Made by a program: the position numbers and the translations under genes. The notes beneath the pieces are model-generated. The model saw only the letters and a list, made by a program, of their open reading frames with translations. It was not told the origin of the DNA and searched no databases. Of a stretch of 64,000 nt of DNA, positions 3,235 through 64,000 are shown one piece after another. The stretch is from assembly GCA_963764715.1 (NCBI GenBank), contig CAVXTP010000021.1:352001-416000 (forward strand). The letters are read 5' to 3'. Numbering within the stretch: the stretch's first letter is position 1; the number at the start of each line of letters is the position of its first letter. This DNA is from an uncultured Acidobacteriota bacterium (GTDB lineage: Bacteria; Acidobacteriota; Thermoanaerobaculia; UBA5066; Gp7-AA6).

Positions 3235-5673
3235 TCACTGAAGAGAGAACGTCTTGACGATGAACACGGCCATCTGACCCCGGGTGTTGGGATTGCCGGG
3301 ACAGTAGTTGCCGCCGCCGCATCCGCCGGTGATCTGCTCGGCTGCGAGCTGCTCGATCCAGTCGGCGAACTGCGACGGGCACTGGACGTCGGCGAAGGTT
3401 CCCGCGCAGGGGGGCGGCGCGTAGCTCGAGCCGTGCCTGGCCTTGAGCAGGAAGACGGCCATCTGGTCGCGGCGGACCGGGTTGCCGGGACAGTACTTGC
3501 CGCCGCCGCAGCCGCCGGTGATCCCCTCGGCCGCCAGCGCCTCGATCCAGTTGGCGAAGGTCGAGGGGCACGCGACGTCCGGGAACGTGCCGGCGCACGG
3601 CGGAGGCGTGTAGCAGAGCCCGTGCTTGCCCTTGAGCAGGAAAACCGCCATCTGCTGGCGCAGCGTGCTCGTGTCCACGGCGTACATGCCGCCGCCGACG
3701 CCGGCCGTGATGGCGTTCGAGACGAGCTTGGAGATGAACGCGTAGAACTGGTTGGCCACGGGGACGTCCAGAAAGTCCGCAACGAATCCCTTGACGAGGG
3801 TGCCCGCGGTGCCGTCCGTGTTGGACAGCGTCACGTCGTGGACGCTGCCCGGGGTCAGGGCCGGGGTTTGCGCCGTGGCGGTCGTGCTTCCCGTGACGTT
3901 GACGTTGGTGGCGGGTAGGCCGCCGACCGTGACCGAGGCTCCGGCAACGAAGTTGCTGCCCGAGAGCGTGATCGTCGTACCGCCGGCCGCCGGGCCGGCC
4001 ACCGGATCGATCGCGTAGACCAGTCTCTGCGAGAACTCGGACGTGTTGCCGTTAGGGTCCGTGGCCGTCGCGGCCACGGGTTGGCCGGGTTGGATGGTCA
4101 TGGGCAGGGTGAGGTCGAAGGTCGCGTCTCCCGAGCCGTCGGTCGTGACCTGGGTCGCCCCGAGGTACGTCTGGCCCTCGAGGAATTCGTGGGGAAAGTT
4201 CGAGCAGGCGGCGTTGGCGTAGAAGTCGAGATCGTAGACGGTCGATGCGGCGGAATGCAGGACGCCGGTCACGTGCGTGCCCGCTCCCTGAGGCAGCGCC
4301 GGCGCCGCGGACGTCAGGATGGGCGAGTTCTGCGAGAGGTTCCCGCCGCCGTCGGCGTCGAGCGGGTCGTTGGGCGTGGGGCCGTCGTTGTTCAGGTCGA
4401 TGCCGAGGCCCCGGTATGCCGAGGCACCGTTGGAGGTGTTGGCGAATATCGAATTGCCGCGAATCGAGTTGTTGACGCGCCCGCCTCCCATCACGTCGAT
4501 GCCGCCGCCGGTCGACGCCGTGGCGCCGTTGTAGGCGATGACGTTGCCCTCGCCCGGATTCGGTCCGCCGATCGTGTTGCTGCTCCCGTAGATGTCGATG
4601 CCCGTGACGCCGTTTCCCAGGGGAGTCGTCCCGTCGGCGCCGACGCCGATGAGGTTGCCCTGGAGGACCGCGCCGTACGTGAGGTACATCCCGCCCCCGT
4701 TGCCCGAGATCACGTTGCCGGCCCCCGGGGCGCTGCCGCCGAGGGTCAGCCCGCCGTCGTTGACCGCCAGTCCGCCGCCGTTTCCGAGAGCGGCCAGCCC
4801 CGTCACATCCGTCCCGATGAAATTCCCCTGGATCGTCGCCGTCACGCCGGCCGGGCCCCCGCTCGCGAACCCGATGCCGTTGATGGTGTTGCCCGAGATG
4901 ACGTTGCGCGCCGCCGGCGTCGTGCCGCCGATCAGCGCGCCCGCGGTCCCCCACGCGAGGTGGACCCCGGTACCGTTACCGAGGGCCGCGAGACCCGAAA
5001 CGTCGGTGCCGATGAGGTTACCCTGGACGACGTGGGCGGAGCCGCCGAATCCGAGCGGCCCGAACTGGACGCCGATCCCGTTGCCCGAGATGAGATTGCG
5101 GGCCGCCGGGGTGACGCCCCCGAAGACCACGCCGACTCCGCCAGCCGTCTGGACCCCCACGGCGTTGCCGTGGATGACCAATCCCGACGGATCCGTGCCG
5201 AAGAAGCAACCCTCGATTGCCTGGCCGGTCCCTCCGCCGACGATGATCGCCGGAGCCGGCGATCGGTTAACGACCAATCCCCGGACGATCGAGCCGTCGC
5301 TCCCGGCGGAGAGCGTCATGCACGAGCCGCCGATGCCTCCCACCGTGGCCGTGCAGTCGATCTCGATGCGAAGCACCGTGTTGAGGCCCTGCCCCGACGG
5401 GAGAGTGTTCGGAGTCGCGCCGGATTGCGTGTACCCGTCCAGCGTCACCGGACTGGCGATCGCGTTCAGGTTCGAGCCGACGACGATCGTGTGGACGCCC
5501 GAGCCCGGGATGTTGAACGCGATCGTGTCGAGCCCGGCGCTCGCGTTGGCGTCGAGGATCGCCTGGCGGAGAGACCCGGCGCCGCTGTCGTTCGTGTTGG
5601 TGACCGTGAAGGTGGCCGCGGACGCCAGGGACGCGAAGACACAGAGGGTGAGAGAGCCGGCCAGGGTTCGCAT
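3235..5673 (-). CDS. Array gene 1: secreted beta-helix + Ig + IPT/TIG + 3x Cys-rich SLH protein (812 aa)
   Basis: C-terminal half of ORF 3235..8088. True start is MRTLAGSLTLC at 5673 after [20 protein letters not shown] cap, GNxIGTD repeats, [16 protein letters not shown] and FxDVx[18 protein letters not shown]..RxQMAVF repeats. Confidence 0.9.
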   Translation of the reverse strand: MRTLAGSLTLCVFASLASAATFTVTNTNDSGAGSLRQAILDANASAGLDTIAFNIPGSGVHTIVVGSNLNAIASPVTLDGYTQSGATPNTLPSGQGLNTVLRIEIDCTATVGGIGGSCMTLSAGSDGSIVRGLVVNRSPAPAIIVGGGTGQAIEGCFFGTDPSGLVIHGNAVGVQTAGGVGVVFGGVTPAARNLISGNGIGVQFGPLGFGGSAHVVQGNLIGTDVSGLAALGNGTGVHLAWGTAGALIGGTTPAARNVISGNTINGIGFASGGPAGVTATIQGNFIGTDVTGLAALGNGGGLAVNDGGLTLGGSAPGAGNVISGNGGGMYLTYGAVLQGNLIGVGADGTTPLGNGVTGIDIYGSSNTIGGPNPGEGNVIAYNGATASTGGGIDVMGGGRVNNSIRGNSIFANTSNGASAYRGLGIDLNNDGPTPNDPLDADGGGNLSQNSPILTSAAPALPQGAGTHVTGVLHSAASTVYDLDFYANAACSNFPHEFLEGQTYLGATQVTTDGSGDATFDLTLPMTIQPGQPVAATATDPNGNTSEFSQRLVYAIDPVAGPAAGGTTITLSGSNFVAGASVTVGGLPATNVNVTGSTTATAQTPALTPGSVHDVTLSNTDGTAGTLVKGFVADFLDVPVANQFYAFISKLVSNAITAGVGGGMYAVDTSTLRQQMAVFLLKGKHGLCYTPPPCAGTFPDVACPSTFANWIEALAAEGITGGCGGGKYCPGNPVRRDQMAVFLLKARHGSSYAPPPCAGTFADVQCPSQFADWIEQLAAEQITGGCGGGNYCPGNPNTRGQMAVFIVKTFSLQ

Positions 5674-5681
5674 GCGCCCTC

Positions 5682-8081
5682 CTACTGAAGCTTGAACGTC
5701 TTGACGATGAAAACCGCCATCTGCCCCCGTGTGTTGTTGGTTTGCGGGCAGTAGTTGCCGCCGCCGCAACCGCCGGTGATCTGCTCGGCCGCCAGGTGCT
5801 CGATCCAGTCGGCGAAGGCCGACGGGCAGGCGACGTCGGGGAATGTCCCCGCGCACGGGGGCGGCACGTAGTTCGAGCCGTGCTCGGCCTTGAGAAGAAA
5901 GACCGCCATCTGGTCGCGCCGCACGGGATTGCCGGGGCAGTAGTTGCCACCGCCGCATCCGCCGGTGATGCCCTCGGCGGCGAGGGCCTCGATCCAGTTG
6001 GCGAAGGTCGACGGGCAGGGTACGTCCGGAAACGTGCCCGTGCAGGCCGGGGGCACGTAGCAGAGGCCGAACTTCGCCTTGAGCAGAAAGACGGCCATCT
6101 GCTGGCGCAGCGTCGGCTGATTCACGCCGTAGAGGCCGCCGCCCACGCCGACGGTGATGGTGTTGGAGACGAGCGTCGTCACGGAGGGATAGAAGATGTT
6201 GGAGGAGGGCACGTCGAGGAAGTCCGAGACGAAGCCCTTCGGGAGCGTCCCGGCGCTGCCGTCGAGATTGACGACGGTGACGTCGTTGACCGTGCCGGCG
6301 GGCAGCGCCGGAGACGTCGCGCCGATCTGCGTGCTCGACCCGACGTTGACGCCCGAGGCCGCCACGCCGCCGATCGTCACCGTCGCGCCGGCCGCGAAGT
6401 CCGTTCCCGCGAGGGCGACCGCGGTGCCCCCGGCCGGCGGGCCGGAGGTCGGCAGGATGGCGAAGACGATGCGCTGCGAGAACTCCGACGTGTTCCCGGC
6501 GGGGTCGGTCGCGGTGGCGGTGACCCGAGCTGCCGGGTCGAGCACGACGGGAAGGGTCACGTCGAAGATGCCCGTGCCCGCGCCATCGGTCGCGACCTGG
6601 CCGAAGCCGAGATACGTCTCGCCCTCGATGAACTCGCGCGGGAAGCGAGCGCAGGCGGGGTTCGCGTAGAAGTCGAGGGTGTAAGTCGTCGACGGCGCCG
6701 AGTGCAGGATGCCCTGGAACCGCGTGTCGGTGCCCTGCGGCCCGACGAGCCCCGTCACCGTGGTCACGATCGGGAAGTTCTGAAACTCGTTGCCGACGCC
6801 GGTGTCGGAATCGCCCGGGTCGTTGGGAGTGACGCCGAGGGTGCCGTCGCTGTTGTCGATCCCGATGCCAAAGTTGTCGTGGATCGAGTTGCCGCGGATC
6901 GTGACACGGAGCCCCAGGTTCCAGATCCCTCCGGTGAACAGGATCCCCCCGAGGCTCGGGTAGCCCTGGTTGAAGGCGATCACGTTGCCCTCGCCCGCCC
7001 CGGGCCCGCCGATCACGACGTTCGTCGTGTCGAGGGTGTTGAGCAGTATGGACAGATTGTTCGGCACCGGCAGTGTTCCCGTCGGGTCGGTGCCGATGAG
7101 GTTGCCTTGAATCACCGAGCCGGCGATGCCGTTGTTCAGGATGATGGCCTGATTGTTGCCCGAGATGACGTTGCCCTCTCCGGGCGCCGGACCTCCGATG
7201 TCGATGCTCTCGGTCAGGGCGGCGTCGATGCCGAAGTTGTTCGGAAGTGCCATCGTCCCGCTGATGTCGGTGCCGATGAAGTTGCCCAGGATTCGGTTTC
7301 CCGCGCCGGACTGCACCACGTAGAGCCCGTTGCCGTTCGTGTTGCCGGAGATCACGTTGCGTGCGCCGGCCGCGGCGCCGCCGACCAGCGTGTTCGTGGC
7401 GAGGACGAGCGTGACTCCGGTGCCGTTCTCGAGCGCGCCGGTTCCGTCGGCCGTCGTCCCGATCCGATTCCCCTGGATCACGTTGGCGTCGCCGGTGATG
7501 ATGTGGACGCCGGAGCCGCCGTTTCCCGAGACGAGGTTTCCGGCCCCGGCCGACGTCCCACCGATCGTGTTGCCGTCGGAGGCCTGGATGTAGACGCCGT
7601 CGCCGACGCTCAAGTCGACCGTCCCCGTCGGGTCCGTGCCGACGTAGCAGCCCTCGACGAGGTTGCCGCCGCCGGTCCCGAGGCTGATCTGCGCCGAGAA
7701 GCCGTTGACGACGAGCGCGCGGACGGTGCTCCCGCCCGCGGTGATCCGGATGCCGTTGCCCAGAGGCGCGCCGGCCGTGATCTCGATGAGCGGGCTGCCC
7801 GCGTAGCCGGGTTGCGTCGTCCCGTCGATGATCACCGGATCGGTGATCGTGGGCGGGCTCGTCGCCAGACTGATCGTGTGGACGCCGCCGCCCGCGATGG
7901 CGAAGGCAATGGTGTCGAAGACTCCGACAGACGCGTTCGAAGCGTCGATTGCGTCGCGGAACGATCCGGCTCCGCCGTCGTTCGTGTTTGTCACCGTGAT
8001 GGTCACGGCAAGGAGTTCGCCTCGGGCGAACGACAGACCGAGGGCAACCAGGAGGAGCCGTGCCGCAAGGACTGGGCGCAT
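5682..8081 (-). CDS. Array gene 2: secreted beta-helix/IPT/SLH protein (799 aa)
   Basis: Signal peptide MRPVLAARLLL, GSFRDAIDASN cap, same domain order as gene 1. Confidence 0.9.
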   Translation of the reverse strand: MRPVLAARLLLVALGLSFARGELLAVTITVTNTNDGGAGSFRDAIDASNASVGVFDTIAFAIAGGGVHTISLATSPPTITDPVIIDGTTQPGYAGSPLIEITAGAPLGNGIRITAGGSTVRALVVNGFSAQISLGTGGGNLVEGCYVGTDPTGTVDLSVGDGVYIQASDGNTIGGTSAGAGNLVSGNGGSGVHIITGDANVIQGNRIGTTADGTGALENGTGVTLVLATNTLVGGAAAGARNVISGNTNGNGLYVVQSGAGNRILGNFIGTDISGTMALPNNFGIDAALTESIDIGGPAPGEGNVISGNNQAIILNNGIAGSVIQGNLIGTDPTGTLPVPNNLSILLNTLDTTNVVIGGPGAGEGNVIAFNQGYPSLGGILFTGGIWNLGLRVTIRGNSIHDNFGIGIDNSDGTLGVTPNDPGDSDTGVGNEFQNFPIVTTVTGLVGPQGTDTRFQGILHSAPSTTYTLDFYANPACARFPREFIEGETYLGFGQVATDGAGTGIFDVTLPVVLDPAARVTATATDPAGNTSEFSQRIVFAILPTSGPPAGGTAVALAGTDFAAGATVTIGGVAASGVNVGSSTQIGATSPALPAGTVNDVTVVNLDGSAGTLPKGFVSDFLDVPSSNIFYPSVTTLVSNTITVGVGGGLYGVNQPTLRQQMAVFLLKAKFGLCYVPPACTGTFPDVPCPSTFANWIEALAAEGITGGCGGGNYCPGNPVRRDQMAVFLLKAEHGSNYVPPPCAGTFPDVACPSAFADWIEHLAAEQITGGCGGGNYCPQTNNTRGQMAVFIVKTFKLQ

Positions 8082-8197
8082 GGACCACCCGCCTTTCCGG
8101 CTTGCCCGCCTGGGGAAGGCGGGCGAGTCTGCAAAAACTCTATCTCAGGAGGGTGCGGACGGGACGGACGAAGGCCGCCGACTGGCCCGACTGGCCC

Positions 8198-8623
8198 TCA
8201 CTCCGACCCCGGGGTGTGGATCCAGCAGGGGATCGAGGTCAGGAACGTGAATCCGGCGCGCTCGTAAAAGCCCTTCGCCGTCTCCCGGCTGTCGAGGTAG
8301 ACCTTCGGGATGCCCTCCTCGGCGGCCCGCCGGCCGAGCCAGCGCAGCATCTGGCCGCCGTGGCCGTGGCCCCGCACGTCTTCGGCCGTGACGAGGTCGT
8401 CCACGAACAGGTGCTCCCCCCGCGACAGGGTGTGGGAGCGCCGAACACCCGCCAGGCAGACGAGCCGCCCGTCCTCGAAGCCGCCGAAGAGCTGGTAGCC
8501 CTCGAGGTGCTGCCGGCGGACCTCGGCGACGAACGTCTCCTCGCGGAGCCGGTCGCGCAGCTGCCGCGCCAGGGGGAAGGCCGCGGCGATGTCGGCGTCG
8601 GTCGAGAGCTCGCGGATGTCCAT
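8198..8623 (-). CDS. GNAT family N-acetyltransferase
   Basis: 141 aa with LFVDDLVT..VRGHGHG acetyl-CoA loop and AKGFYERAGF motif. Confidence 0.88.
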   Translation of the reverse strand: MDIRELSTDADIAAAFPLARQLRDRLREETFVAEVRRQHLEGYQLFGGFEDGRLVCLAGVRRSHTLSRGEHLFVDDLVTAEDVRGHGHGGQMLRWLGRRAAEEGIPKVYLDSRETAKGFYERAGFTFLTSIPCWIHTPGSE

Positions 8624-8658
8624 GGCGCCCGCCGGTCTCCTTATGCCTTATGGAAACT

Positions 8659-8838
8659 GGAGCCGTCCACCAGAGGCGCGCCGACCCCCGAAGGCAGACC
8701 CCCGGCAGTAGGCAACGCCGGGCGAAGCACGGCGGTAACTCAAATGCGACTTCTGGCCAACGCTCATGGAAATTGGAGCCGGCCACCGAAGGCAGACCCC
8801 CGGCAGTAGGCAACGCCGTGCGAAGCACGGTGGTAACT
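8659..8838. repeat. Two tandem copies (98-bp period) of a 64-bp palindromic element, each next to an SLH-gene 3'-end remnant
   Basis: GGAGCCG.CCACC-GAAGGCAGACCCCCGGCAGTAGGCAACGCCG.GCGAAGCACGG.GGTAACT at 8659-8740 (with an 18-nt insert) and at 8775-8838. A third copy is at 41448-41511. Confidence 0.9.
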
Positions 8839-8861
8839 CAAATGCGACTCTTGGCCAACGC

Positions 8862-11252
8862 TCATGGAAATTGGAAGGTGTTGTACAGGAACGCCGCCAT
8901 CTGGTCGCGCCGGACGGGACTGGCTGGGCAGTAGTTGGTACCGCCGCAGCCGCTGGTAATGCCCTCGGCGGCGAGCTGCTCGATCCAGTCGGCGAAAGTC
9001 GACGGGCAGGGCACGTCGGTGAAGTCGCCGCTGCAGACGGGCGGCACGTAGCTCGAGCCGTGCTTGCTCTTCAGGAGGAAGACGGCCATCTGCTGCCGCG
9101 TCACCGGATTGGTCGGGCAATAGTTGCCGCCTCCGCAGCCGCCCGTGATCCCGGCGGCGGCGAGCGCTTCGATCCAGGGCGCGAAGCCGCTCGAGCACGG
9201 GACGTCCGGGAAGACGCCGCTGCACGGCGGCGGCACGTAGCAGAGGCCGTTCTTCGACTTCAAGAGAAACACCGCCATCTGCTGGCGGGTGACCGTGTTC
9301 AACGGGCAGTAGATCCCCGTGCCGCAGCCGACGGTGATGGCGTTGGAGACGAGCTTGGTGATGTAGAAGTAGAACTGCTGGGCGCCGGGCACGTCGCCGA
9401 AGTCCGCGATCCAACCGTTGCGCAGCGTTCCCGCCGTTCCGCTCGGATTGGTGACGACGATGTCGTTGAGCGAGCCGGCCGGCCGGGCCGGCGTGACCGC
9501 CTGGATGCTGTGGTCGTTGTTGACGACGACCCCGGTCGCGGCGGCGCCGCCGACCGTCACCGTCGCCCCGTTTTCGAGGAGCATGCCCGTCAGCGAGACC
9601 GTCGTGCCGCCGGCGGGAGGACCGGCGCCGGGACTGCTCGCGAAGACGATGCGCTGCGAGAACTCGGAGGTGTTCCCGTTCGGGTCGGTCGCCGTCGCCG
9701 TCACGACCTGGCCGGGCTGCAGGACGAACGGCACGTCGGTCGAAAACGTCGCGTTCCCGGAGCCGTCCGTCGTGACCTGGAGAGACCCCAGATAGTTCTC
9801 GCCCTGGACGTACCCCTGGGGGACCGGCACGCAGGCCGCGGTCGAATAGAGGTCGACGTCGAAGGTCGTCGAGGCGGTGCTGTTGAGGATTCCCTGGATG
9901 TTCGTCGTCGACGCGCCCGGCGTGACCGTCTTGACGATGGGGTAGTTCTGGCCGCCGTTGGGGCCGACGTCGGCGTCCCCCGGGTCGTTCGGCGTGACGC
10001 CCCCGCTTCCGCCGACGTAGAGGTCGATTCCGAGCGGGCGGTTGGCGAACATGCGGTTCCCGCGGATGCGCGCGCCCTGCGGCCCGCCGTTGGCGACGCC
10101 TCCGTAGGGAGGCCCGTTGAAGGCGATGACGTTGCCCTCGCCCGGCGAGATTCCGCCGATCGTCCAGTTGTTGCCTCCCACCGCCATCGCGCCGCCCTTG
10201 TTGCCGAGGTCGAGAGTGGCCGAGGCGTCGGTACCGATGAAGTTGCCCTGAATGACCTCTCCGGAGCCGCCCTCGCTGAGAATGCCCTGGTTCGTGCTGG
10301 CGGCGATCACGTTGTGCAGCACGTTGCAGTTCTGGTTCGGGATCGACACGCCGACGCTGTTGCCGAGAGGCAGCGTCCCGGTGACGTCGGTGCCGATGAA
10401 GTTGCCCTGGACCGTCGCCTGGGCGCCCGTGCCTCCGACGGTGTAGCCGATGCCGACGCCGTAACCCGTCCCGCCGGAGATGACGTTGCGCGAGGCCGCC
10501 GTCGGGCCGCCGATGACGACGTTGGTTCCGATGCGGACGTACACGTTGGCGTAGACGAAGCTGCCCGGGATCGTCGCCGTGCCCGCGGCGTTGGTGCCGA
10601 TGAGGTTGCCGCGGATGAGCGCGTTCGTTCCGCCGCTGTCGCCCACGAGGACCTGCGCCGCGTCGTTGCCGGAAATCACGTTCCGGTCCGCGGGATTCGT
10701 GCCGCCGACGCTGACGGCTGTGGTCTCGATGTCGACGCCGTAGCTCTGCGCTCCGGGCCGAGTGGCGCCGGCCGGGTCCGTGCCGATGAAGTTGCCGACG
10801 ATGATGGTGCCGCTCCCGGCCCCGCCCACCTGAATCCCGGCGTTCTTGCAGCGGTTGATCGCGAGCCCGCGGATCGTGACGTTGCCGGCGTTGGATATCA
10901 GGCCGTTGGTCCCGAACCCCAGCGCCGAGCCGTCGATCTCGATCCGGATCACCGCGTTGGTGCCCTGGCCGATGCCGTTCGTGTTCGCCGCCGCGCCGGG
11001 CTGCGTGTAGCCGTCGATGGTCACGGCGTCGGTGATCGCCGGCAGCGCCGTCGCCGGGACGATCGTGTGCACGCCGCTGCCGACGATGGAGAAGGCGACC
11101 GTGTCGTTGCCGGGGCTCCCGTTGGCGTCGAGGATCGCCTGGCGGAGGGACCCCGCGCCCGAATCGGCGGTCGTCGTGACCGTGTAGGTGTTCGCCGAAA
11201 CCACCGCGGCGAGCCCGAAGGCTGCCAGGCCGAGAGCTGACTTGAGACGCAC
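8862..11252 (-). CDS. Array gene 3: secreted beta-helix/IPT/SLH protein
   Basis: ORF 8862..11270; probable GTG start at 11252 after RBS GAGGAGG. Full family architecture, ends FLYNTFQFP. Confidence 0.9.
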   Translation of the reverse strand: MRLKSALGLAAFGLAAVVSANTYTVTTTADSGAGSLRQAILDANGSPGNDTVAFSIVGSGVHTIVPATALPAITDAVTIDGYTQPGAAANTNGIGQGTNAVIRIEIDGSALGFGTNGLISNAGNVTIRGLAINRCKNAGIQVGGAGSGTIIVGNFIGTDPAGATRPGAQSYGVDIETTAVSVGGTNPADRNVISGNDAAQVLVGDSGGTNALIRGNLIGTNAAGTATIPGSFVYANVYVRIGTNVVIGGPTAASRNVISGGTGYGVGIGYTVGGTGAQATVQGNFIGTDVTGTLPLGNSVGVSIPNQNCNVLHNVIAASTNQGILSEGGSGEVIQGNFIGTDASATLDLGNKGGAMAVGGNNWTIGGISPGEGNVIAFNGPPYGGVANGGPQGARIRGNRMFANRPLGIDLYVGGSGGVTPNDPGDADVGPNGGQNYPIVKTVTPGASTTNIQGILNSTASTTFDVDLYSTAACVPVPQGYVQGENYLGSLQVTTDGSGNATFSTDVPFVLQPGQVVTATATDPNGNTSEFSQRIVFASSPGAGPPAGGTTVSLTGMLLENGATVTVGGAAATGVVVNNDHSIQAVTPARPAGSLNDIVVTNPSGTAGTLRNGWIADFGDVPGAQQFYFYITKLVSNAITVGCGTGIYCPLNTVTRQQMAVFLLKSKNGLCYVPPPCSGVFPDVPCSSGFAPWIEALAAAGITGGCGGGNYCPTNPVTRQQMAVFLLKSKHGSSYVPPVCSGDFTDVPCPSTFADWIEQLAAEGITSGCGGTNYCPASPVRRDQMAAFLYNTFQFP

Positions 11253-11292
11253 GTGGACCTCCTCGTTCATGACTGGTCGGATCGCCGAACCC

Positions 11293-53482: not shown

Positions 53483-56073
53483 GCCTGCAGGAGCGTCGCC
53501 TCGCGGGTGATCGACATCCCGGCCTGCTCCGCGGGAGGGATCGCGAGCAGGGCCTCGAGGACCTTCTTCGCCGTCGCGGTTTCGCCCGCGGCCTGATCGA
53601 GGTTGACCTCGAAGACGAGGCTTGCGCCCGTCGCGTCGGACTCGAGCGCGAGGGAGCGCAGGGCCGGCATGGACCGTCTCCAGCCGTCGACGAGGGCCTC
53701 GCTCGCGCGGTTCATGTGCTCCTGCGAGTCGAGGCGCACGGCGTAGCGCGCGCCCTTGACGGCCTTCGCGAGGGAAGGCTCTCCGGCCGCCAGCGCGCGG
53801 ACCTCGAGGACCTCGATCCCGTCCGGGAGCTTCGCGTTGATGCGCTGGGCGGCGTCGTCGGGGAAGGGGGAGCGTCCGTCGACGTCGAAGACCTCGTGCC
53901 GGCTCTCGAGCCCCAGCGCGAGGGCCGGACCCATGGAGAGCTTCATGTGCGGGTTGAAGCCTTCCGTGTACCGGGCCGGCAGGCCCGCGGAGCGGATCGC
54001 GCGCTCGAGGACGTCCATCGTGTTGCGGTGAGACAGCAGGCGCGCGTCGCCGGTCTTCGTGAATGAAACGCGGTGGCGGAACACCTGGTCGCCCTGGGCG
54101 CCCCGGCGCGAGGCGGCGGGAAGGTCCGGCATCGCCTTCTGGCGGTAGGCCGCCCCTTTGGCGACGTCGCGGTAGGCGGCGGGATCGCTCGCGGGTGCCG
54201 CCGCCGCGTCGAATGCTGGAAGATCGGTCATCCCCTTGGCGAGTACGGTGTCCTCGCCGTTGCCCGGGACGCCGCAGGCGTAGCAGTGGCCCCACTTGCA
54301 GTCCTCGGTCCGCATCTCCTTCTTCGCCTTGATCAGCTCGATCTGGAGCCAGCGCTTCTTGATCGAGACGTCGAGGACGTCCCACGGCAGGATCTCGTCG
54401 AGGTCGTAGGCCCGCAGGTACGACTCCTTCGGGATGCCCTCGGTTTCGAAGGCCTTCGTCCAGAGGTCGTAGCGGAAGTGCTCGGTCCAGCCGTCGAACC
54501 GCACGCCCGACTTCCAGGCCGTGTGGAGGATCCGCCCGGCGCGCCGGTCGCCCCGGGACAGCACGCACTCGATCTCGGCCTCGCGCGGCTCGTGCCACTT
54601 CATCTTCGCGCCGCGCACGCGCCGGAACCGGTCCTTCAGGTACGCGAGCTTCGACTCGAGCACGTCGACGCCGTCGAACGGCGCCCACTGGAACGGCGTC
54701 CAGGACTTCGGCACGAACGACCCGACGGAGACGTTCACGTTCTTGCGGCCGTGCTTCCTTCCCTGCGCGAGGATGCCTTCGACGAGCGTGACGAGCTCGT
54801 CGAGATCGGCTTCGGTCTCGGTCGGCAGCCCGATCATCGTGTAGACCTTGATGAGGTCCCAGCCGCGGGCGAAGGCGACGTCGGCCGCCGCGATCATGTC
54901 GGCGTTGGTGAACGTCTTGTTGATGACGCGGCGCAGCCGGTCGGAGCCCGTCTCCGGCGCGAACGTGAAGCCGGACTTGCGGACCTCCGAGACGGCGTCG
55001 GCGAGGCCGACGGAGAAGGCCTCCGCGCGGAGCGACGGCAGCGAGATCGACACGCGCTGGTCCGCGAGGGCCGGCGCGAGGCACTTCACGAGCGGTTCGA
55101 TCTGGGAATAGTCGGCGGTCGAGAGCGAGAGCAGGCCGACCTCGCTCCAGCCCGACTCGGCGATGAATTTCTTCGTCATGTCGGCGACGTCGCCCGGGTC
55201 GAGCTCGCGCACGGGCCGGTACCAGTAGCCGGCCTGGCAGAAGCGACAGCCCTGGGTGCAGCCGCGCATCACCTCGAGGCCCAGCCGGTCCTGCACGATC
55301 TCGACCGACGGGACCATGGGCTTCTCGGGGTAGTACTCGGGCTTGAGCCGCGGCACCCACGTGCGGCGCGCCCGTTCCGGCGCCCGCGGGTCGTTTCTCT
55401 CGATCGAGGCGATGCGGCCGTCCTCGCGGTACGTCACGTCGTAGAACGACGGGACGTAGATGCCGTCGACCTGCGCGAGCGCGGCGAGGAGGTCGCGGCG
55501 GGAGAGCCCGCGCGCCCGAGCCTCGCGGTAGGCGTCGAGGAAGACCGGCAAGGCCTCCTCGGCGTCGCCGACGAGGAAGGCGTCGAAGAAGTCGGCGATC
55601 GGCTCGGGATTCGCCGTGCAGGGGCCGCCGCCGAGCACGATCGGGTCCGTCTCGCGGCGGTCGCGCTGCCAGACCGGCAGGCCCGCGAGATCCAGCATGT
55701 TGAGGATGTTCGAATAGTTGAGCTCCGCCTGGAGCGAGAACCCCAGGACGTCGAAGTCGGCGGCCGGCGCGAAGGACTCCGTCGAGAAGAGGGGAATTCC
55801 GTTGTCTCGCATCCGGGCCTCGAGGTCCGTCCACGGCGCGTACACCCTCTCGCAGGCGAAATCCTCGCGGCGGTTGACGATCTCGTAGAGGATCTTCAGC
55901 CCCGTGTGGCTCATCCCGATCTCGTAGGTGTCGGGGAAGGCGAGGGCCAGCGTCACCGAGGCCTTCGCGAGGTCCTTGCGCGTGACGTTGCGCTCGAGGC
56001 CGACGTACCGGCCCGGCTTCTCGACGAAGGGCAGGTGCGGGTCGAGGAGCGGGCGGAGAGAGCCGTATCGCAT
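53479..56073 (-). CDS. TIGR03960-family radical SAM protein fused to a TIGR03936/DUF2344 domain (864 aa)
   Basis: VEKPGRYVG, FPDTYEIGMSH, RGCTQGCRFC (CxxxCxxC) and TFAPETGSDRLR; C-terminal FTKTG..RLLSH...YTEGFNPH.KLS..PALALG. Confidence 0.9.
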   Translation of the reverse strand: MRYGSLRPLLDPHLPFVEKPGRYVGLERNVTRKDLAKASVTLALAFPDTYEIGMSHTGLKILYEIVNRREDFACERVYAPWTDLEARMRDNGIPLFSTESFAPAADFDVLGFSLQAELNYSNILNMLDLAGLPVWQRDRRETDPIVLGGGPCTANPEPIADFFDAFLVGDAEEALPVFLDAYREARARGLSRRDLLAALAQVDGIYVPSFYDVTYREDGRIASIERNDPRAPERARRTWVPRLKPEYYPEKPMVPSVEIVQDRLGLEVMRGCTQGCRFCQAGYWYRPVRELDPGDVADMTKKFIAESGWSEVGLLSLSTADYSQIEPLVKCLAPALADQRVSISLPSLRAEAFSVGLADAVSEVRKSGFTFAPETGSDRLRRVINKTFTNADMIAAADVAFARGWDLIKVYTMIGLPTETEADLDELVTLVEGILAQGRKHGRKNVNVSVGSFVPKSWTPFQWAPFDGVDVLESKLAYLKDRFRRVRGAKMKWHEPREAEIECVLSRGDRRAGRILHTAWKSGVRFDGWTEHFRYDLWTKAFETEGIPKESYLRAYDLDEILPWDVLDVSIKKRWLQIELIKAKKEMRTEDCKWGHCYACGVPGNGEDTVLAKGMTDLPAFDAAAAPASDPAAYRDVAKGAAYRQKAMPDLPAASRRGAQGDQVFRHRVSFTKTGDARLLSHRNTMDVLERAIRSAGLPARYTEGFNPHMKLSMGPALALGLESRHEVFDVDGRSPFPDDAAQRINAKLPDGIEVLEVRALAAGEPSLAKAVKGARYAVRLDSQEHMNRASEALVDGWRRSMPALRSLALESDATGASLVFEVNLDQAAGETATAKKVLEALLAIPPAEQAGMSITREATLLQA

Positions 56074-56103: not shown

Positions 56104-58464
56104 CTAGGGCAGCTGGAAGGTCTTGACCAGGAACACCGCCATCTGGCCGCGCGTGTTGTTGTTGCCCGGGCAGTAGTTGCCGCCGCCGCATCCGCCGGTG
56201 ATCTGTTCCGCCGCAAGCTGCTCGATCCAGTCGGCGAAGAGCGAGGGGCACTGCACGTCGGCGAACACGCCCGTGCAGGCGGGAGGCGCGTAGGTGGCGC
56301 CGTGTTCGGCCTTCAAGAGGAACGCCGCCATCTGGTCGCGGCGGACCGGGTTCTGCGGGCAGTAGTTGCCGCCGCCGCAGCCGCCGGTGATGCCCTCCGC
56401 GGCCAGCGCCTCGATCCAGTCGGCGAAGAGCGAGGGGCACGGCACATCGGAGAAGGTCCCGGTGCATGGCGGGGGTGCGTAACAGATGCCATGCCGTGCC
56501 TTCAGCAGGAAAACGGCCATCTGCTGGCGGAGCACCGACTGCACGACGCCGTAGTTGCCGCCTCCGATGCCGCCCGTGATTCCGTCCGACGCGAGCGTGA
56601 CGACGAAGTCGTGAAAGGGGTTCGACGGCGGCACGTCCAGGTAATCGGCGACGAATCCGAGGGGGAGGATCCCGTGCGTGCCGTCCGTGTTCGTTACGGT
56701 CAGGTCGTAGGCAGCTCCGGGGGCGAGCGCCGGTGTATCGACCTGGATGTGCGTGGCGTCCGACACGACAAGACCCGTTCCGGACAGGCCCCCGAACTTC
56801 ACAGTCGCTCCATCCGCGAAGCTCGTGCCGGAGATCGAAACGGACACGCCGCCCGCGGGGTCGCCGCTCGCCGGTGTCGACGAGAACGGCAGCCGCTGCG
56901 AGAAGCCGGAGGTGTGGAAAGTCGGGATGGGGAAGCCGTCCTGAAGCGTGTACAGAGTCGTCGTCGCCGTCGCGGTCACGATCTCGTCCGACAGCACGAC
57001 GGGCAGATCCACGCTGAAGGAACCGTTTCCACCGAAGTCCGTCGAGACGGAGCCTTGGCCGATGAACGTGGTGCCCTCGTCGAACTGCCTCGGGAACTCT
57101 TTCGAACACGCAGGGCTCGAGAAAAACTCGAGCGTGACCGTCTGGCTCGCCGGACCGTTGTAGACGCCTTCGACGGTGGTGGTGCTGGTGCCGGGGACGA
57201 CCGAAGTGATCAAGGGGAAGTTCAGGTAGTCGCCGGGCGTGTTCGGGCGGATCGTTCCCGCGGCGCCGATGACGATCCCCAGACCGTGGTTCGAATGAAT
57301 CGAGTTGGCACGGAAGGTCCGCCTCGACCCGGTCGACCAGATCCCCTGGCTGTTGTATGCGATCGTGTTTTCGTGAACCCAGAGTCCGGGGGCGGACTCG
57401 GCCAGGACGCCGGCTCCGCCATTTCCGAGCGGCAGCGTTCCGGTCGCGTCCGTCCCGATGAAGTTCGCCGAGACCTGGGGCTGGACGATGGGACCAAAGT
57501 ATTCGATATAGTTGAACGAGAGGCCGTCACCGGTGTTTCCGGAGATGACGTTGTCGAGGAAGTCGACGAAGATCACCGAGCCCTCGACGCGGGCTCCCCG
57601 TCCGTTTCCGAGCTTCGACGTGCCGGCCGCGTCGGTCCCGATACGATTGTGCTGGACGAGTCCGGACGACACACTGATGAACCGGATTCCCTCCGACGTG
57701 TTCCCCGAGATGACGTTGCCGTCTTCCCAGTTGAGCCCTCCGATCTGCGAATTCGAAGTGGTCAAGAGCTCGACGCCGATGCCGTTGCCCGCCGCGTCGT
57801 GGCCATTGGGCGCCGTGCCGATGAGGTTTCCGCGGATCTGCTTTTGGTTGACGAAGTCCAGGACGATGCCCGCCGTGGAGTTGCCCGAGATGACGTTGCG
57901 CGCCGCCGGATTCGAGTCGCCGATGCGGTCGAGACCGCTCGTGCCCGTGATCGTCACGCCGACGACGTTGCCGGATGTTACGGACCCGGAGGCGGTCGGC
58001 CCGATGAAGTTGCCCTGAATCAGGTTGTCCACCGCAGTCGTCAGCGCGATCGCCGTCTGGAAGCCGTAGAGCGCTAGGCCCTGCACGATCGAGGAACCTC
58101 CGGTGATCGTCAGTCCGTCGGTGCCGCTGCCGAGCAGCTCGATCTGGAGGACCGCATCGTCGCCGAGAGGGTCCGAGTTCCACGCGGAGCCCGGCTGCGA
58201 GTAGCCGTCGATCAGGACCGATTCGATGATGTCCGGCAGCGCCGCGGGCACGAGGATGGTGTGCGGGCCGGCCCCGGGGATGGCGAACGCGATCCCGTCG
58301 GGGCCGGGCGAGGCGTTGGCGTCGAGGATCGCCTGCCGCAACGATCCCGGACCGCTGTCCCCGATGTTCGTCACGGTATAGATGGCGGCCCGGGCGTCCG
58401 GCGGCCCGAGGAGGGCGAGGAGTGCGGCGGCGGCGGCGAGTTTCGGCGTAGGACGCTTCCACAT
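56104..58464 (-). CDS. Array gene 20: secreted beta-helix/IPT/SLH protein (786 aa)
   Basis: Start MWKRPTPKLAAAAALL at 58464 after RBS AAGGAG; full family architecture. Confidence 0.88.
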   Translation of the reverse strand: MWKRPTPKLAAAAALLALLGPPDARAAIYTVTNIGDSGPGSLRQAILDANASPGPDGIAFAIPGAGPHTILVPAALPDIIESVLIDGYSQPGSAWNSDPLGDDAVLQIELLGSGTDGLTITGGSSIVQGLALYGFQTAIALTTAVDNLIQGNFIGPTASGSVTSGNVVGVTITGTSGLDRIGDSNPAARNVISGNSTAGIVLDFVNQKQIRGNLIGTAPNGHDAAGNGIGVELLTTSNSQIGGLNWEDGNVISGNTSEGIRFISVSSGLVQHNRIGTDAAGTSKLGNGRGARVEGSVIFVDFLDNVISGNTGDGLSFNYIEYFGPIVQPQVSANFIGTDATGTLPLGNGGAGVLAESAPGLWVHENTIAYNSQGIWSTGSRRTFRANSIHSNHGLGIVIGAAGTIRPNTPGDYLNFPLITSVVPGTSTTTVEGVYNGPASQTVTLEFFSSPACSKEFPRQFDEGTTFIGQGSVSTDFGGNGSFSVDLPVVLSDEIVTATATTTLYTLQDGFPIPTFHTSGFSQRLPFSSTPASGDPAGGVSVSISGTSFADGATVKFGGLSGTGLVVSDATHIQVDTPALAPGAAYDLTVTNTDGTHGILPLGFVADYLDVPPSNPFHDFVVTLASDGITGGIGGGNYGVVQSVLRQQMAVFLLKARHGICYAPPPCTGTFSDVPCPSLFADWIEALAAEGITGGCGGGNYCPQNPVRRDQMAAFLLKAEHGATYAPPACTGVFADVQCPSLFADWIEQLAAEQITGGCGGGNYCPGNNNTRGQMAVFLVKTFQLP

Positions 58465-60623: not shown

Positions 60624-63002
60624 CTACGGGAGCGCGAAGGTCTTGGTCAGAAAGACGGCCATCTGCCCGCGCGTGTTGTTGTTGGCCGGGCAGTAGTTTC
60701 CGCCCCCGCAGCCCCCCGTCACGTTCTCGGCCGCGAGCTGCTCGATCCAGTCGGCGAAGAGCCCCGGGCACGTCACGTCGGGAAAGACGCCGGTACATGG
60801 CGGCGGCAGGTACGCCGAGCCGTGCTTGGCCTTCAGGAGAAAGACCGCCATCTGGTCGCGCCGGACCGGATTCTGAGGACAGTAGTTGCCCGCACCCTCG
60901 CGGACGGCGGAGCCGCAACCCCCGGTGATGCCCTCGAAATAGAGGGCCTCGATCCAGGGCGCGAACGGCGTCGCGCAAAGCACGTCCGCGAAAATTCCGA
61001 TACACGGCGGCGGGACGTAGCAGATGCCGTGCTTGCCCTTGAGAAGGAAGACCGCCATCTGTTGACGGAGGACGGGATTCGCGACGCCGTAGAGGCCGCC
61101 GCCGATGCCTCCGGTGATCGCGTTGGCGGTGAGAGCGACAACGGAGTCGTGGAACAGGTTCGACGGCGGGACGTCGTCGAAGTCGGCGACCCAGCCCCGG
61201 GAGAGCGTTCCCCTCGTTCCGTCGGAATTGGTCACGGTGACGTCGTGGGCGCCGGGGACGAGCGCGGGCGTCGTGGCGGAGACTTGCCAGAAGCTGTCGA
61301 CGGAAACGCCGGAGGCGGCCTGGCCGCCGACGGACACCGTCGCGCCGGCTGCGAAGTCCGTGCCCGAGATCGCGACGGCCGTCCCGCCGCCCGAGGGCCC
61401 CGACCGCGGGGTGATCGAGAACGGAAGGCGCTGGGAAAAGCCGGAGGTCTGGTGGGTGGGGAAGCCGCCCGTGGGAACGGACGGATTGAAGGTCACGGTG
61501 GCGGTCGCCGTGACGCGCCGGCCCGTGACGTCGAGGATGGAATCGGCGTGGAACGCCAGGTGCCCGCTTGCGTCGGTGACGCCGCTCGTGGTCGCGAAGA
61601 AGTTCATGCCCTCGTCGAAGTCCGAGGGCCACTTCGCAGAGCACGCCGGACCGTAGAACAGCTCGATCGAGACGAAATCGTTCGGACTGCCCGAGTAGAC
61701 GCCGTCGATCGCGCTTCCCGCGGCGCCCGAGACGACGGAGGTGATGATGGGAAAGTTGAACGGGCTCAGCGGCAAGTTCGCCCCGATCGCCTCGGCCTGC
61801 CCGAGCACGATTCCGAGGCCGTGGTTGTCATGGATCGAGTTCTCGGTGATGGTGACGCTGCTGTTGATGGAGATCTGGAGCCGCCAGATCCCCGACCGGT
61901 TGAAGGCGATCGCGTTGTAGGAGATGGCGAGCGCGTCGCCGACCTCGATGCGGATTCCGGTCCCGCCGTTGCCGATCGGGGACGTGCCGAGAACGTCGGC
62001 ACCGATGACGTTGATGGCGACGATGTTCTGCACGGCGCCGATGTTGGCCGTCGAGTAGGAGAGGTCGACGCCGTTGCCGGCGTTGCCCGAGATGACGTTG
62101 GAGAAGATGCTGAAGTTTTCCGAGACGCCCTCGACGCGGATCCCGTGGCCGCCGTTTCCGAGCATTGCCATGCCCGTGGCGTCGGTTCCGATGAGGTTGC
62201 CCTGGACGGAGTTCGCGTTGCCATCGGTGATGGCGACGCCGGTCCCGAAGTTGCCCGAGATGACGTTTCGCTCCTCGGGAGTCGGGCCGCCGACCTGGAT
62301 GTTCGAGGAACCGGTCACTTGGATTCCGGCCCCGTTCGGAAGAGCCGCGGCGCCGGTCTTGTCGGTCCCGATCAGGTTTCCGCGGATCAGCTTGCCGTCG
62401 CACCCGGAGATCACGACGCCGGCCGACGAATTCCCCGCGATGAGGTTCCGCGCCGCCGGGTAATTGTCGCCGATCTTGTCCTGCCCCGTCGTGCCGGTGA
62501 TGGAGACACCCGTGACGTTGCCCGGGAACGTCTCGTTTCCGGCCGCATCAGTGCCGATGAAGTTGCCGATGACCCAGAGGCCGGGCGCGCCGGAGACCGC
62601 GATGGCCGTCTGGAAGCCGTGGAGGGCGAGGCCCTGGACGATCGCTGCGCCGCCCGTGATCACGAGGCCGTCGGTCCCCTGGCCTAGCAGCTCGACCTGG
62701 AGCACGGCGTTGTCGCCGACCGGGTCGGTGTTCCACACGGAGCCGGGCTGGGAATAGCCGTCGATGAGAGTCGAGCCCGTGATGGTCAGGGGAGTGAACG
62801 TCACGATCGTGTGCGGGCCCGTGCCGGGGATCGCGAAATCGATCAGGTCGCCTTCCACCGTCCCGTTGGCGTCGAGGATGGCCTGGCGGAAGGAGCCCGC
62901 GCCGCCGTCGTTGGTGTTGGTGACGGTGAAGGTGGCGGCGCCCAGGGGCTGAGCGGCGAGGCCGAGAAGCAGAAACGGGCCCAAACGCGGTTTGACTCGC
63001 AT
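60624..63002 (-). CDS. Array gene 22: secreted beta-helix/IPT/SLH protein (792 aa)
   Basis: Start MRVKPRLGPFLLL at 63002 after RBS GAGGT; full family architecture. Confidence 0.88.
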   Translation of the reverse strand: MRVKPRLGPFLLLGLAAQPLGAATFTVTNTNDGGAGSFRQAILDANGTVEGDLIDFAIPGTGPHTIVTFTPLTITGSTLIDGYSQPGSVWNTDPVGDNAVLQVELLGQGTDGLVITGGAAIVQGLALHGFQTAIAVSGAPGLWVIGNFIGTDAAGNETFPGNVTGVSITGTTGQDKIGDNYPAARNLIAGNSSAGVVISGCDGKLIRGNLIGTDKTGAAALPNGAGIQVTGSSNIQVGGPTPEERNVISGNFGTGVAITDGNANSVQGNLIGTDATGMAMLGNGGHGIRVEGVSENFSIFSNVISGNAGNGVDLSYSTANIGAVQNIVAINVIGADVLGTSPIGNGGTGIRIEVGDALAISYNAIAFNRSGIWRLQISINSSVTITENSIHDNHGLGIVLGQAEAIGANLPLSPFNFPIITSVVSGAAGSAIDGVYSGSPNDFVSIELFYGPACSAKWPSDFDEGMNFFATTSGVTDASGHLAFHADSILDVTGRRVTATATVTFNPSVPTGGFPTHQTSGFSQRLPFSITPRSGPSGGGTAVAISGTDFAAGATVSVGGQAASGVSVDSFWQVSATTPALVPGAHDVTVTNSDGTRGTLSRGWVADFDDVPPSNLFHDSVVALTANAITGGIGGGLYGVANPVLRQQMAVFLLKGKHGICYVPPPCIGIFADVLCATPFAPWIEALYFEGITGGCGSAVREGAGNYCPQNPVRRDQMAVFLLKAKHGSAYLPPPCTGVFPDVTCPGLFADWIEQLAAENVTGGCGGGNYCPANNNTRGQMAVFLTKTFALP

Positions 63003-63051
63003 TGGTGCACCTCTCGAAACTGCGCCGAGTCTATTCCCCTCGAGGCTCCCG

Positions 63052-64000
63052 CTACTGCAGGTTGAAGGTCTTGACGATGAACACGGCCATCTGCCCGCGG
63101 GTGTTGGGGTTGGCCGGGCAGTAGTTGCCGCCGCCGCAGCCGCCCGTAATGCCCTCGGCTGCGAGCCGCTCGATCCAGTCGGCGAATGCCGATGGGCAGG
63201 GAACGTCCGCGAATGTCCCCCCGCAGGCGGGCGGCACGTAACCGGGGCCGTGCTCGGCCTTGAGGAGGAAAACGGCCATCTGGTCGCGGCGCACGGGGCT
63301 TCCCGGACAGAAGTTGCCACCGCCGCAGCCGCCGGTGATGCCTTCGGCGAGGAGCGCTTCGATCCAGTCGGCGAAGGCGGATGGACAGGGGACGTCGCCG
63401 AAAATGCCCGTGCACGGGGGCGGCACGTAGCACAGGCCGTGCTTGCCCTTGAGAAGGAAGACCGCCATCTGCTGGCGCAGCGTGGGGGAATCGACGCCGT
63501 AGAGGCCGCCTCCGACGCCGCCCGTGATGCCGTTCGCGAAGAGCGTCACGACGTCGGCGTGGAAGGGGTGGGCCGCCGGGACGTCCAGGAAATCCGAAAC
63601 CCATCCCATCCTCAACGTCCCGCGGGTCCCGTCGAGATTGACCACCGTGATGTCGCTGGCCGAGCCGGCCGGCAGCGGGGGCGTGGCGCACGTGATCAGA
63701 GTGCGGTTCTGGACGGTGATGAAGTTCGGTGTCAATCCGCCGATCGTGATCGTCGCGCCCGGAAGGAAATCGGTGCCCGAGACGAAGACGGGCGTTCCCC
63801 CGGCCGCCGGTCCCGAGGAGGGCGAGACCGAAAAGGGCAACCGCTGCGAGAAGGCCGACGTGTGGTAGCTCCCCAGGAGGCCCCCGTCCGCGATCGCGAA
63901 CGGCGGGGTAAAGACTTCGGCGATCGTCGTGACGCGCTCGTCCGTCAGCGTCACCGGAAGCTGGTCGGTGAACGCTGCGTCGCCGTTGCCGTCGGTGACG
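63052..64000 (-). CDS. Array gene 23 (5' end outside the window): Ig + IPT/TIG + 3x SLH
   Basis: HTSAFSQRLPF, IPT domain and SLH repeats ending VKTFNLQ; the frame stays open to the window edge. Confidence 0.88.
   Translation of the reverse strand, partial: VTDGNGDAAFTDQLPVTLTDERVTTIAEVFTPPFAIADGGLLGSYHTSAFSQRLPFSVSPSSGPAAGGTPVFVSGTDFLPGATITIGGLTPNFITVQNRTLITCATPPLPAGSASDITVVNLDGTRGTLRMGWVSDFLDVPAAHPFHADVVTLFANGITGGVGGGLYGVDSPTLRQQMAVFLLKGKHGLCYVPPPCTGIFGDVPCPSAFADWIEALLAEGITGGCGGGNFCPGSPVRRDQMAVFLLKAEHGPGYVPPACGGTFADVPCPSAFADWIERLAAEGITGGCGGGNYCPANPNTRGQMAVFIVKTFNLQ

Follow-up and report, generated by a model that had tools for sequence, protein, structure and literature searches.

A tandem family of SLH-anchored beta-helix proteins in an uncultured Acidobacteriota bacterium

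The DNA analysed here, referred to as the window, is a 64,000-nucleotide stretch from an uncultured Acidobacteriota soil bacterium of the class Thermoanaerobaculia (assembly GCA_963764715.1, contig CAVXTP010000021.1, positions 352,001 to 416,000 of the forward strand). It covers the middle of a large tandem array of genes for exported proteins with a beta-helix head and a surface layer homology (SLH) anchor. A first-pass annotation of the sequence had described 23 or more SLH-anchored paralogs in tandem, continuing past the window edge. Both statements hold: 23 triple-SLH anchors lie on one strand in the window, and the array runs past both ends, with 35 beta-helix copies on that strand over about 105 kb (G000:C21:314961-419830). 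Here G000 is the genome holding the window, C21 and similar labels are its contigs, and G013 and G006 are the two congeners with which it was compared. The data support the view that these chromosomal genes encode a set of exported proteins in which the SLH anchor stays constant and the beta-helix varies, and they show that the set grew through tandem duplication in place, followed by slow divergence. The window forms the core of this ~105-kb tandem multigene family, and we see about an even chance that its products are tethered to the wall and serve as a repertoire of modules that bind or process glycans.

Family members were located with hidden Markov models built from the window copies and run on all six frames of G000. 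The window has a G+C content of 0.64-0.73, and a frame analysis of G+C at third codon positions (GC3) shows that the minus strand is coding over almost its whole length. Twenty-two minus-strand genes have a signal-peptide-like N-terminus, and a GGAGG-like site lies upstream of most of them. The 23 anchors belong to 21 beta-helix copies and two genes with GloVer-repeat heads; the 21 copies comprise 19 intact genes (742-816 aa), one broken gene and one that is cut by the right window edge. In the intact copies a shared motif starts directly after the signal peptide. The first-pass annotation placed the array at positions 3235-64000. The 23 members are indeed there, but the same range also holds genes for an extracytoplasmic function (ECF) sigma factor, a Ser/Thr kinase and a radical SAM fusion, and a small GNAT gene. 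The members within the window are the following:

3235..5673, minus strand: beta-helix/TIG/SLH paralog, 812 aa (Pfam TIG and SLH)
5682..8081, minus strand: beta-helix/TIG/SLH paralog, 799 aa, the reference copy that was folded (Pfam TIG and SLH; G013 ortholog 82% identical)
8862..11270, minus strand: beta-helix paralog, 802 aa
11293..13683, minus strand: beta-helix paralog, 796 aa
13776..16136, minus strand: beta-helix paralog, 786 aa
16157..18574, minus strand: beta-helix paralog, 805 aa
18725..21127, minus strand: beta-helix paralog, 800 aa
21136..23586, minus strand: beta-helix paralog, 816 aa
23794..26208, minus strand: beta-helix paralog, 804 aa (G013 ortholog 84% identical)
26287..28698, minus strand: beta-helix paralog, 803 aa, first gene of its block and divergent from the sigma gene
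32219..34504, minus strand: beta-helix paralog, 761 aa
34521..36752, minus strand: beta-helix paralog, 743 aa (G013 ortholog 91% identical)
36767..38995, minus strand: beta-helix paralog, 742 aa
39005..41401, minus strand: beta-helix paralog, 798 aa
41556..43817, minus strand: beta-helix paralog, 753 aa
44031..46277, minus strand: beta-helix paralog, 748 aa (Pfam NosD and SLH)
46295..48568, minus strand: beta-helix paralog, 757 aa
48599..51042, minus strand: broken beta-helix paralog, with head, stalk plus TIG, and SLH in three frames (frameshifts near 49650 and 49125)
51195..52955, minus strand: GloVer-repeat head on an SLH anchor, 586 aa, no TIG match (TIGR03803; Pfam SLH)
56104..58464, minus strand: beta-helix paralog, 786 aa
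58584..60530, minus strand: GloVer beta-propeller plus TIG plus triple SLH, 648 aa (TIGR03803; homologs up to 94% identity)
60624..63002, minus strand: beta-helix paralog, 792 aa (Pfam Beta_helix, NosD, TIG and SLH)
63052..64000, minus strand: C-terminal part of a further beta-helix paralog (full gene C21:415052-417433)

Each gene has the same order of parts: signal peptide, N-terminal cap, right-handed beta-helix, beta-sandwich stalk, IPT/TIG domain and triple SLH. The signal peptides are of the Sec type only. The helix is made of three or four double coils of ~60 residues (xGNxIGTDxxGT ... NxISGN). Ten proteins, seven of them beta-helix heads, were scanned against Pfam. SLH was found in nine of the ten (22.9-57.6 bits, cut-off 20.8); the negative one comes from the broken copy and comprises just its head, the anchor of that copy being a separate, SLH-positive protein. 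TIG was matched in 5/10, while Beta_helix (PF13229) or NosD (PF05048) scored above cut-off in three of the seven heads (44031, 60624 and 49084) and the other four had no match. NCBIfam assigned the beta-helix heads to no family; an unrelated model was matched weakly, at its SLH end.

An AlphaFold2 (AF2) model of the 799-aa reference copy (5682-8081; pLDDT 92.3, pTM 0.87) has a one-helix cap, a beta-helix to about residue 400, two beta-sandwiches and three helix-rich C-terminal repeats. Compared with VIA-align, the head gave Z >= 8 for 295 of 993 chains, and model and matches together identify it as a right-handed parallel beta-helix. The best matches are the A-modules of the epimerases AlgE6 and AlgE4 (Z 33.8 and 33.6, root-mean-square deviation (rmsd) 2.1-2.2, 312-314 residues), followed by phage tailspike depolymerases (Z ~30), the polysaccharide lyase RbmB (30.4), NosD (30.3) and the adhesin PfbA (26.8), with inulin fructotransferases and polygalacturonases also present. 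Over the AlgE modules and tailspikes as a group (Z 33.8-29.4, rmsd 2.0-3.5, ~310 residues), however, identity is just 13-21% and no catalytic-type residues are conserved across the paralogs; the fold held in common does not show a common function. Searching the ESM Atlas gave generic Beta_helix/NosD clusters only, from several phyla. At least 81% of copies close the helix with the motif NDPGDxDTGxNxxQNFP (reference residues 419-437, window ~6771-6827, minus strand), which we take to resemble a calcium site of the DxDxDG type.

Two members were described at first as having a beta-propeller swapped in on the same anchor, and this description stands. TIGR03803 is matched in both, at 269.6 bits (51195-52955) and 307.8 bits (58584-60530) against a cut-off of 44, with seven stretches each. 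The propeller fold was modelled for 58584-60530 (AF2, pLDDT 89.9), whose head matches the beta-propellers 2z2o (TMt 0.80) and 2qc5 (TMt 0.78) and Photorhabdus lectins (0.64-0.66). A relative in public data carries the name 'choice-of-anchor tandem repeat GloVer-containing protein [Thermoanaerobaculia bacterium]'. Unlike other choice-of-anchor GloVer proteins, those described here have TIG plus triple SLH as the anchor, and their genes lie inside a beta-helix array.

The anchor consists of three tandem repeats of ~60 residues, visible both in the sequence and in the model. The anchor of the reference copy superposes on the SLH domains of Bacillus anthracis Sap (3pyw; TMt 0.83, rmsd 3.2), and other solved SLH structures, SpaA-SLH among them, also match (6bt4, TMt 0.80; 6cwc, TMt 0.79). 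Among 60 aligned family sequences, R659, R722 and R785 are invariant, one Arg per repeat. This Arg aligns with that of the TRAE/TRVE/TRGD motifs of Sap and SbsB; the rest of the motif departs from TRAE and reads LRQQ, RRDQ and TRGQ. Invariant cysteines surround the SLH Arg residues in the same 60 sequences. G000 as a whole has 98 triple-SLH loci, 38 in the array (23 of them in the window) and the others elsewhere, and about 31 loci with a single SLH repeat. Other tethered heads include GSDH (glucose/sorbosone dehydrogenase), M12 metallopeptidase, Vgb-lyase-like propellers and CarboxypepD_reg/MAM. SLH is thus a general tether in this genome, with many heads on one anchor. Several SLH-anchored genes, including one with an M12 peptidase head, lie at C7:24861-32389, a few kb from a gene for a CsaB-like pyruvyl transferase (G000:C7:20052-21041). 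The loci with a single C-terminal SLH repeat are small open frames (215-352 aa) clustered on C4 and C16 (for example C16:25425-26480), and in the one scanned no other Pfam domain was found.

Identity by domain was measured in 150 random pairs among 42 intact copies. Mean values are 0.61 for the cap, 0.42 for the helix, 0.52 for the stalk, 0.46 for TIG and 0.68 for SLH. The contrast between a constant anchor and a variable helix drawn in the first-pass annotation therefore holds at its two ends, with the helix least and SLH most identical, but the gradient is softer than described and TIG is hardly above the helix. Helix alignments contain 21% gaps. Helix length varies from 226 to 353 aa in a bimodal distribution whose modes are about one 60-residue double coil apart. 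Hypervariable columns (>=3 bits of entropy) account for 21% of the helix compared to 0-5% of other domains. When these columns are placed on the secondary structure of the model, they make up 51% of the longest strand of each coil, 28% of the turn after it and 10% of the rest of the helix. From beta-helix geometry it follows that the longest strands would stack into one sheet, and the variable residues would then lie mostly on one face of the helix, as the first-pass annotation expected. Helix residues that are at least 80% conserved across the 42 paralogs are G, N, L, I, F, T, A and P, the Arg columns 181 and 396, and the NDxxDxDxG..QNxP end motif.

Selection was estimated as the ratio of nonsynonymous to synonymous substitution rates (dN/dS) by the NG86 method; dS is near saturation at a GC3 of ~0.9, and old conversion could escape notice. 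In 17 pairs, dN/dS is below 1 in every domain, at 0.18-0.57 for the helix, 0.11-0.43 for the cap and 0.06-0.21 for SLH where both anchors are intact. When the helix columns of 14 ortholog pairs are pooled by variability, dN/dS is 0.71 in the most variable class, 0.38 in the middle class and 0.12 in the conserved class. At a peak of 0.71, these values do not show diversifying or positive selection on the helix. The medians of 861 paralog pairs are, for dN, 0.53 (head), 0.54 (TIG) and 0.27 (SLH), and for dS, 0.80, 0.82 and 0.73 in the same order. Since dS of the anchor is not lowered and a conversion tract is seen in only one of the 861 pairs, gene conversion was rejected as the main cause of the anchor's constancy. 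Cap and anchor are conserved by purifying selection, the anchor mainly so. The sole clear conversion tract joins two adjacent genes outside the window, C21:328277 and C21:330573 (to 332987), with dS of 0.18 in TIG, 0.25 in SLH and 0.92 in the head, and 93% nucleotide identity in the SLH region. The nearest partner differs between anchor and head in 32 of 42 copies, which may reflect old exchanges or poor resolution of a short conserved region.

No two paralogs within G000 exceed 71% identity. A tree of 87 copies drawn from the three genomes intermingles their branches (29 changes of the G000 label compared to a shuffled mean of 29.3), so most duplications are older than the three species compared. 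The nearest paralog lies within two gene ranks for 22 of the 35 array copies (shuffled mean 4.0, maximum 13), showing that nearest paralogs are neighbours and that tandem duplication on the spot enlarged the array. Both congeners share the synteny of the locus. The relative places of the cytochrome cluster, the two kinases and the radical-SAM gene are matched in G013, and the radical-SAM fusion (53479-56073) is 96% identical to its G013 counterpart over residues 472-721 and 86% identical to that of G006. The strong conservation of this gene suggests that genes already resident at the locus are older and that the array grew up around them. Among the 35 copies, 14 have a counterpart in G013 at >=70% identity (70.5-91.5%) and the other 21 reach at most 68%; two of the 35 reach 70% in G006. 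The 1:1 orthology of every copy that had been raised as a counter-case is therefore not seen. The family evolves by birth and death at a moderate rate of turnover, which falls between strict 1:1 orthology and rapid churning. What was first called active turnover has one broken copy, one conversion tract and the 14/35 counterparts on its side, but the expansion itself is older than the three species. In the G013 array (G013:C2:611560-708026, L007-L013) many copies are split into short frames, in a genome that is 67% complete; these breaks look like assembly indels rather than decay.

Features of the window outside the family are the following:

1..139, plus strand: 3' end of the first Ser/Thr kinase gene with tetratricopeptide repeats (TPR) (open reading frame C21:348900-352139 ends at window position 139; 82% identical to the syntenic G013 gene)
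161-835, minus strand: SoxA-like cytochrome c, interrupting the array (NCBIfam match)
846-1952, minus strand: metallophosphoesterase with TAT signal, interrupting the array (NCBIfam match)
1949-3082, minus strand: MauG/MbnH-like di-haem enzyme, interrupting the array (NCBIfam match)
8082..8861, minus strand: gap outside the family, with a GNAT-like gene (8198-8647) and two tandem repeats of ~95 nt
28764..29441, plus strand: ECF-type sigma factor (TIGR02999; 91% identical to the syntenic G013 gene)
29303..32209, plus strand: Ser/Thr protein kinase with a transmembrane segment and TPR (NCBIfam kinase and TPR; syntenic, 81.5% identical in G013 and 70% in G006)
53479..56073, minus strand: TIGR03960/TIGR03936 B12-binding radical SAM fusion (713.5 bits)

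The kinase coordinates 29303..32209 are those of the open reading frame as listed; its true start, which is uncertain, is probably near the stop of the sigma gene. The trio of cytochrome c, metallophosphoesterase and MauG-like genes (161..3082) has the same gene order in G013.

Two sigma/kinase pairs are embedded in the array. The sigma gene in the window (TIGR02999, 195.7 bits, cut-off 126.15) is directly upstream of, and co-oriented with, the transmembrane TPR kinase, and divergent from 26287-28698, the gene that opens a block of ten running down to 3235. The second pair (G000:C21:349102-352139, sigma gene C21:349102-349698) lies just left of the window and is divergent from a 13-gene block beyond. 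G013 and G006 retain both pairs at the corresponding positions, with sigma identities of 91-92% and 82-85%, and the arrays of G000, G013 and G006 hold two, two and four pairs, respectively. At 82-92% identity, the sigmas are far better conserved than the beta-helix genes around them. Adjacency and co-orientation are as in known TIGR02999 ECF sigma/Ser-Thr kinase modules; no target promoter was identified here. Such pairs correspond to the type labelled 'ECF43', and work on Vibrio is reported to describe a sigma factor regulated by phosphorylation. The array had been credited with a regulator of its own: an ECF sigma factor and TPR kinase are present and keep their position in both congeners, and that they may control the array is suggested only by divergent placement and synteny.

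Upstream regions were scanned for shared signals. Over window positions 3000-22900, sigma-70-like promoters numbered 0 (shuffles 0.8) and terminator-like sites 13 (shuffles 9.9). A TAGAnT-like box upstream of some genes, GATAGACTC, had 9 matches with at most one mismatch compared to 6.8 expected and is not enriched. A second box, TTGAC-N-TTTGTCGAG, found upstream of four neighbouring copies, was rejected as a regulon motif, as it has three strict matches in the genome, two of them at those genes; it reflects shared ancestry. No common box was found upstream of the sigma genes of the three genomes. No sign of a device for switching, be it an invertible promoter, a repeat tract or silent cassettes that convert often, was seen in the intergenic regions.

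We propose that, after export, the SLH trimer would dock non-covalently on a pyruvylated wall polymer, and that the stalk would hold the helix away from the wall. The longest-strand sheet, different in each copy, may then bind a different ligand in each paralog. The most likely ligand would be a glycan, and some copies may cleave or modify it as well; the embedded sigma/kinase pairs probably switch on blocks of the array. A more elaborate version strikes us as rather improbable: a signal from the envelope or a substrate would be sensed by each pair, which would turn on the adjacent ~7-13 genes, the sheets would recognise different polymers, and together with ~50 other SLH heads the array would form an undescribed SLH display system of a diderm phylum that is dominant in soils.

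Several results weigh against a glycan-directed, wall-tethered repertoire. Fold relatives are the only pointer to a glycan as the putative ligand. Aromatic residues, by which the first-pass annotation had distinguished the copies, make up just 2.7-8.3% of the helix, a low share that does not set the family apart and is atypical for sugar-binding faces. Outside the two Arg columns and the end motif, the helices of the 42 paralogs have no conserved charged or His position. The CsaB-like pyruvyl transferase scores 211.6 bits, 1.5 below the curated cut-off of 213.1. With dN/dS at 0.71 at most, helix variability may reflect relaxed constraint rather than selection for new specificities. The scans found no promoter motif joining the sigma factors to array genes, and a search of sequencing runs for the locus returned four soil-metagenome DNA runs and no RNA run. 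The nearest solved relative, 8wm1, is by annotation a small-molecule enzyme, and the presence of BamA and LpxC argues for an anchor site under the outer membrane.

Alternatively, the array could be a repertoire of wall-tethered enzymes rather than binders (lyases, hydrolases, epimerases or small-sugar-acid dehydratases), each copy with its own active site on the variable face, which we regard as possible but on the unlikely side. Its top fold matches are enzymes (AlgE4/6, tailspike depolymerases, RbmB, inulin fructotransferases and polygalacturonases), as are several types of SLH-tethered head elsewhere in the genome (GSDH, M12 peptidase and Vgb-lyase-like propellers). The closest solved relative (sequence E 5.6e-19, Foldseek E 5.5e-17) is 8wm1, a protein of 484 aa without TIG or SLH that is annotated as a 3-dehydroshikimate (DHS) dehydratase. 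However, 8wm1 shares the N-terminal cap motif (36.3 bits) and the beta-sandwich stalk (31.5 bits), and the helix stretch gives just 7.7 bits. Similarity thus does not run over the full length, as an 8wm1-type dehydratase with its active site on the helix would require. A literature search found no paper on 8wm1, which may be the QuiC-type periplasmic enzyme of Acinetobacter; the part of PMC7442255 that sets out DHS dehydratases gives four groups, among which a beta-helix type is unmentioned. The lack of a conserved acidic, basic or His residue apart from the R181/R396 columns and end motif makes a catalytic site shared by all copies unlikely, though single copies could still be enzymes. Nor was any Pfam enzyme family matched, only the generic Beta_helix and NosD, and the adhesin PfbA has the same fold.

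Location is a separate question that can be combined with either a binding or an enzyme reading. The proteins may be periplasmic, tethered to a peptidoglycan-bound polymer, with either imported oligosaccharides or the envelope or exopolysaccharides of the cell itself as their targets; we consider this a substantial possibility, though we lean somewhat the other way. BamA (478 bits) and LpxC (329 bits) are encoded in G000, so the organism is diderm. In the diderm SLH users Thermus, Deinococcus and cyanobacteria, SLH binds a wall polymer under the outer membrane, so in this diderm host the surface location put forward in the first-pass annotation is no more than a possibility. Pfam SLH was found in four control genomes, all diderms (Synechococcus, Thermus, Deinococcus and Thermotoga), the array signal peptides are Sec-type only, and both NosD and, in Escherichia coli, GSDH-type enzymes are periplasmic. 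On the other hand, G000 also encodes two secretins, making export across the outer membrane possible, and contact with the outside world would account more easily for a hypervariable face. An antigenic or phage/predator-evasion coat, in which the cell would express just one copy or a few and switch among them to keep changing the exposed face, would fit the many paralogs with a single hypervariable face, and the embedded sigma/kinase pairs could gate blocks of genes. We judge it very unlikely: no switching device is seen, promoter and terminator patterns are at chance level, the copies are old (<=71% identical, 14/35 retained at >=70% identity in a congener), dN/dS is below 1, gene conversion is seen in 1/861 pairs, and the likely diderm envelope may hide the proteins. 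Finally, it is hardly credible that the array is an assembly artefact or consists mostly of dead genes, despite the two frameshifts of one copy and the many frame breaks in the G013 array. The 19 intact window copies have start sites and signal peptides, the copies are too diverged for mis-assembled repeats, gene order and the embedded non-family genes are common to G013 and G006, and dN/dS of 0.06-0.57 indicates selection on every domain. The first-pass annotation had likewise thought an artefact unlikely.

Among known systems, the Bacillota SLH proteins (Sap, EA1 and BSL of B. anthracis, SpaA of Paenibacillus alvei) share with the array the triple SLH fold, the aligned Arg per repeat and the use of one anchor by many heads; the genome also has a CsaB-like gene, which scores just under the curated cut-off. 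Unlike them, the array belongs to a diderm host, its anchor is C-terminal, braced by invariant cysteines, with LRQQ/RRDQ/TRGQ motifs in place of TRAE, and one head type has expanded to 45 copies, of which one tandem array contains 35. The BSL genes of B. anthracis are dispersed and fewer, at about two dozen. The Pmp proteins of Chlamydia resemble the array by analogy only, as paralogs of beta-helix-type passengers on a constant anchor. They are autotransporters with a beta-barrel anchor and GGAI/FxxN repeats, encoded by partly clustered genes, some of which are phase-variable; the array proteins instead have an SLH anchor and xGNxIGTD/NxISGN double coils, and no switching device was found. The first-pass annotation knew of no characterised system with this layout. 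A literature search likewise found no published description of a beta-helix/TIG/SLH family or of its head module, but every part is of a known kind. The array involves no new principle, as each domain and birth-and-death evolution are already known; it is the scale that is striking.

More than 100 kb of a 4.4-Mb genome is given to one tandem family, and ~98 exported proteins are tagged with one SLH anchor. Thermoanaerobaculia and other Acidobacteriota are abundant in soil and nearly all uncultured, and their dealings with polymers, surfaces and neighbours are little known. Should ligand specificity lie in the variable face, the family would amount to a natural library, ready for use, of modules that bind or degrade, and to a test case for SLH anchoring in a bacterium with an outer membrane.

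G000 has 45 cap-bearing beta-helix genes, 35 in the array and 10 on other contigs. A word-indexed search of public proteins scored 7913 of 8000 candidates at E <=1e-10. Searched alone, the head matched 37,790 cluster representatives at E <=0.001 and 13,156 at <=1e-30. The best-scoring head matches are giant proteins of 1,142-7,899 aa, many with several whole copies of the module. Each of these giants has 4-40 matched stretches of the cap-helix-stalk module, many covering it whole; the module is thus repeated within a single chain in the giants, compared to across separate genes in the G000 array. All 79 of the reference-genome loci listed are from metagenome-assembled genomes of uncultured Acidobacteriota, Acidobacteria or Thermoanaerobaculia by title. 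Within the genus, 14 of 15 other genomes have 22-48 matches (at most 39 candidates scored per genome); in two other families of the order, four of ten genomes have 1-2 matches.

The broken copy (48599-51042) is either a real pseudogene or an assembly error. Contigs from the four soil-metagenome DNA runs that fall on it are short, cover mostly the SLH part and come from many organisms, leaving the frameshift sites unbridged. The 780-bp gap at 8082-8861 is the only large gap of the left block. Its GNAT-like gene (~149 aa) gives weak ArsN2 and RimI matches, and its ~95-nt repeat has dozens of copies in the genome, some of them upstream of other array genes.

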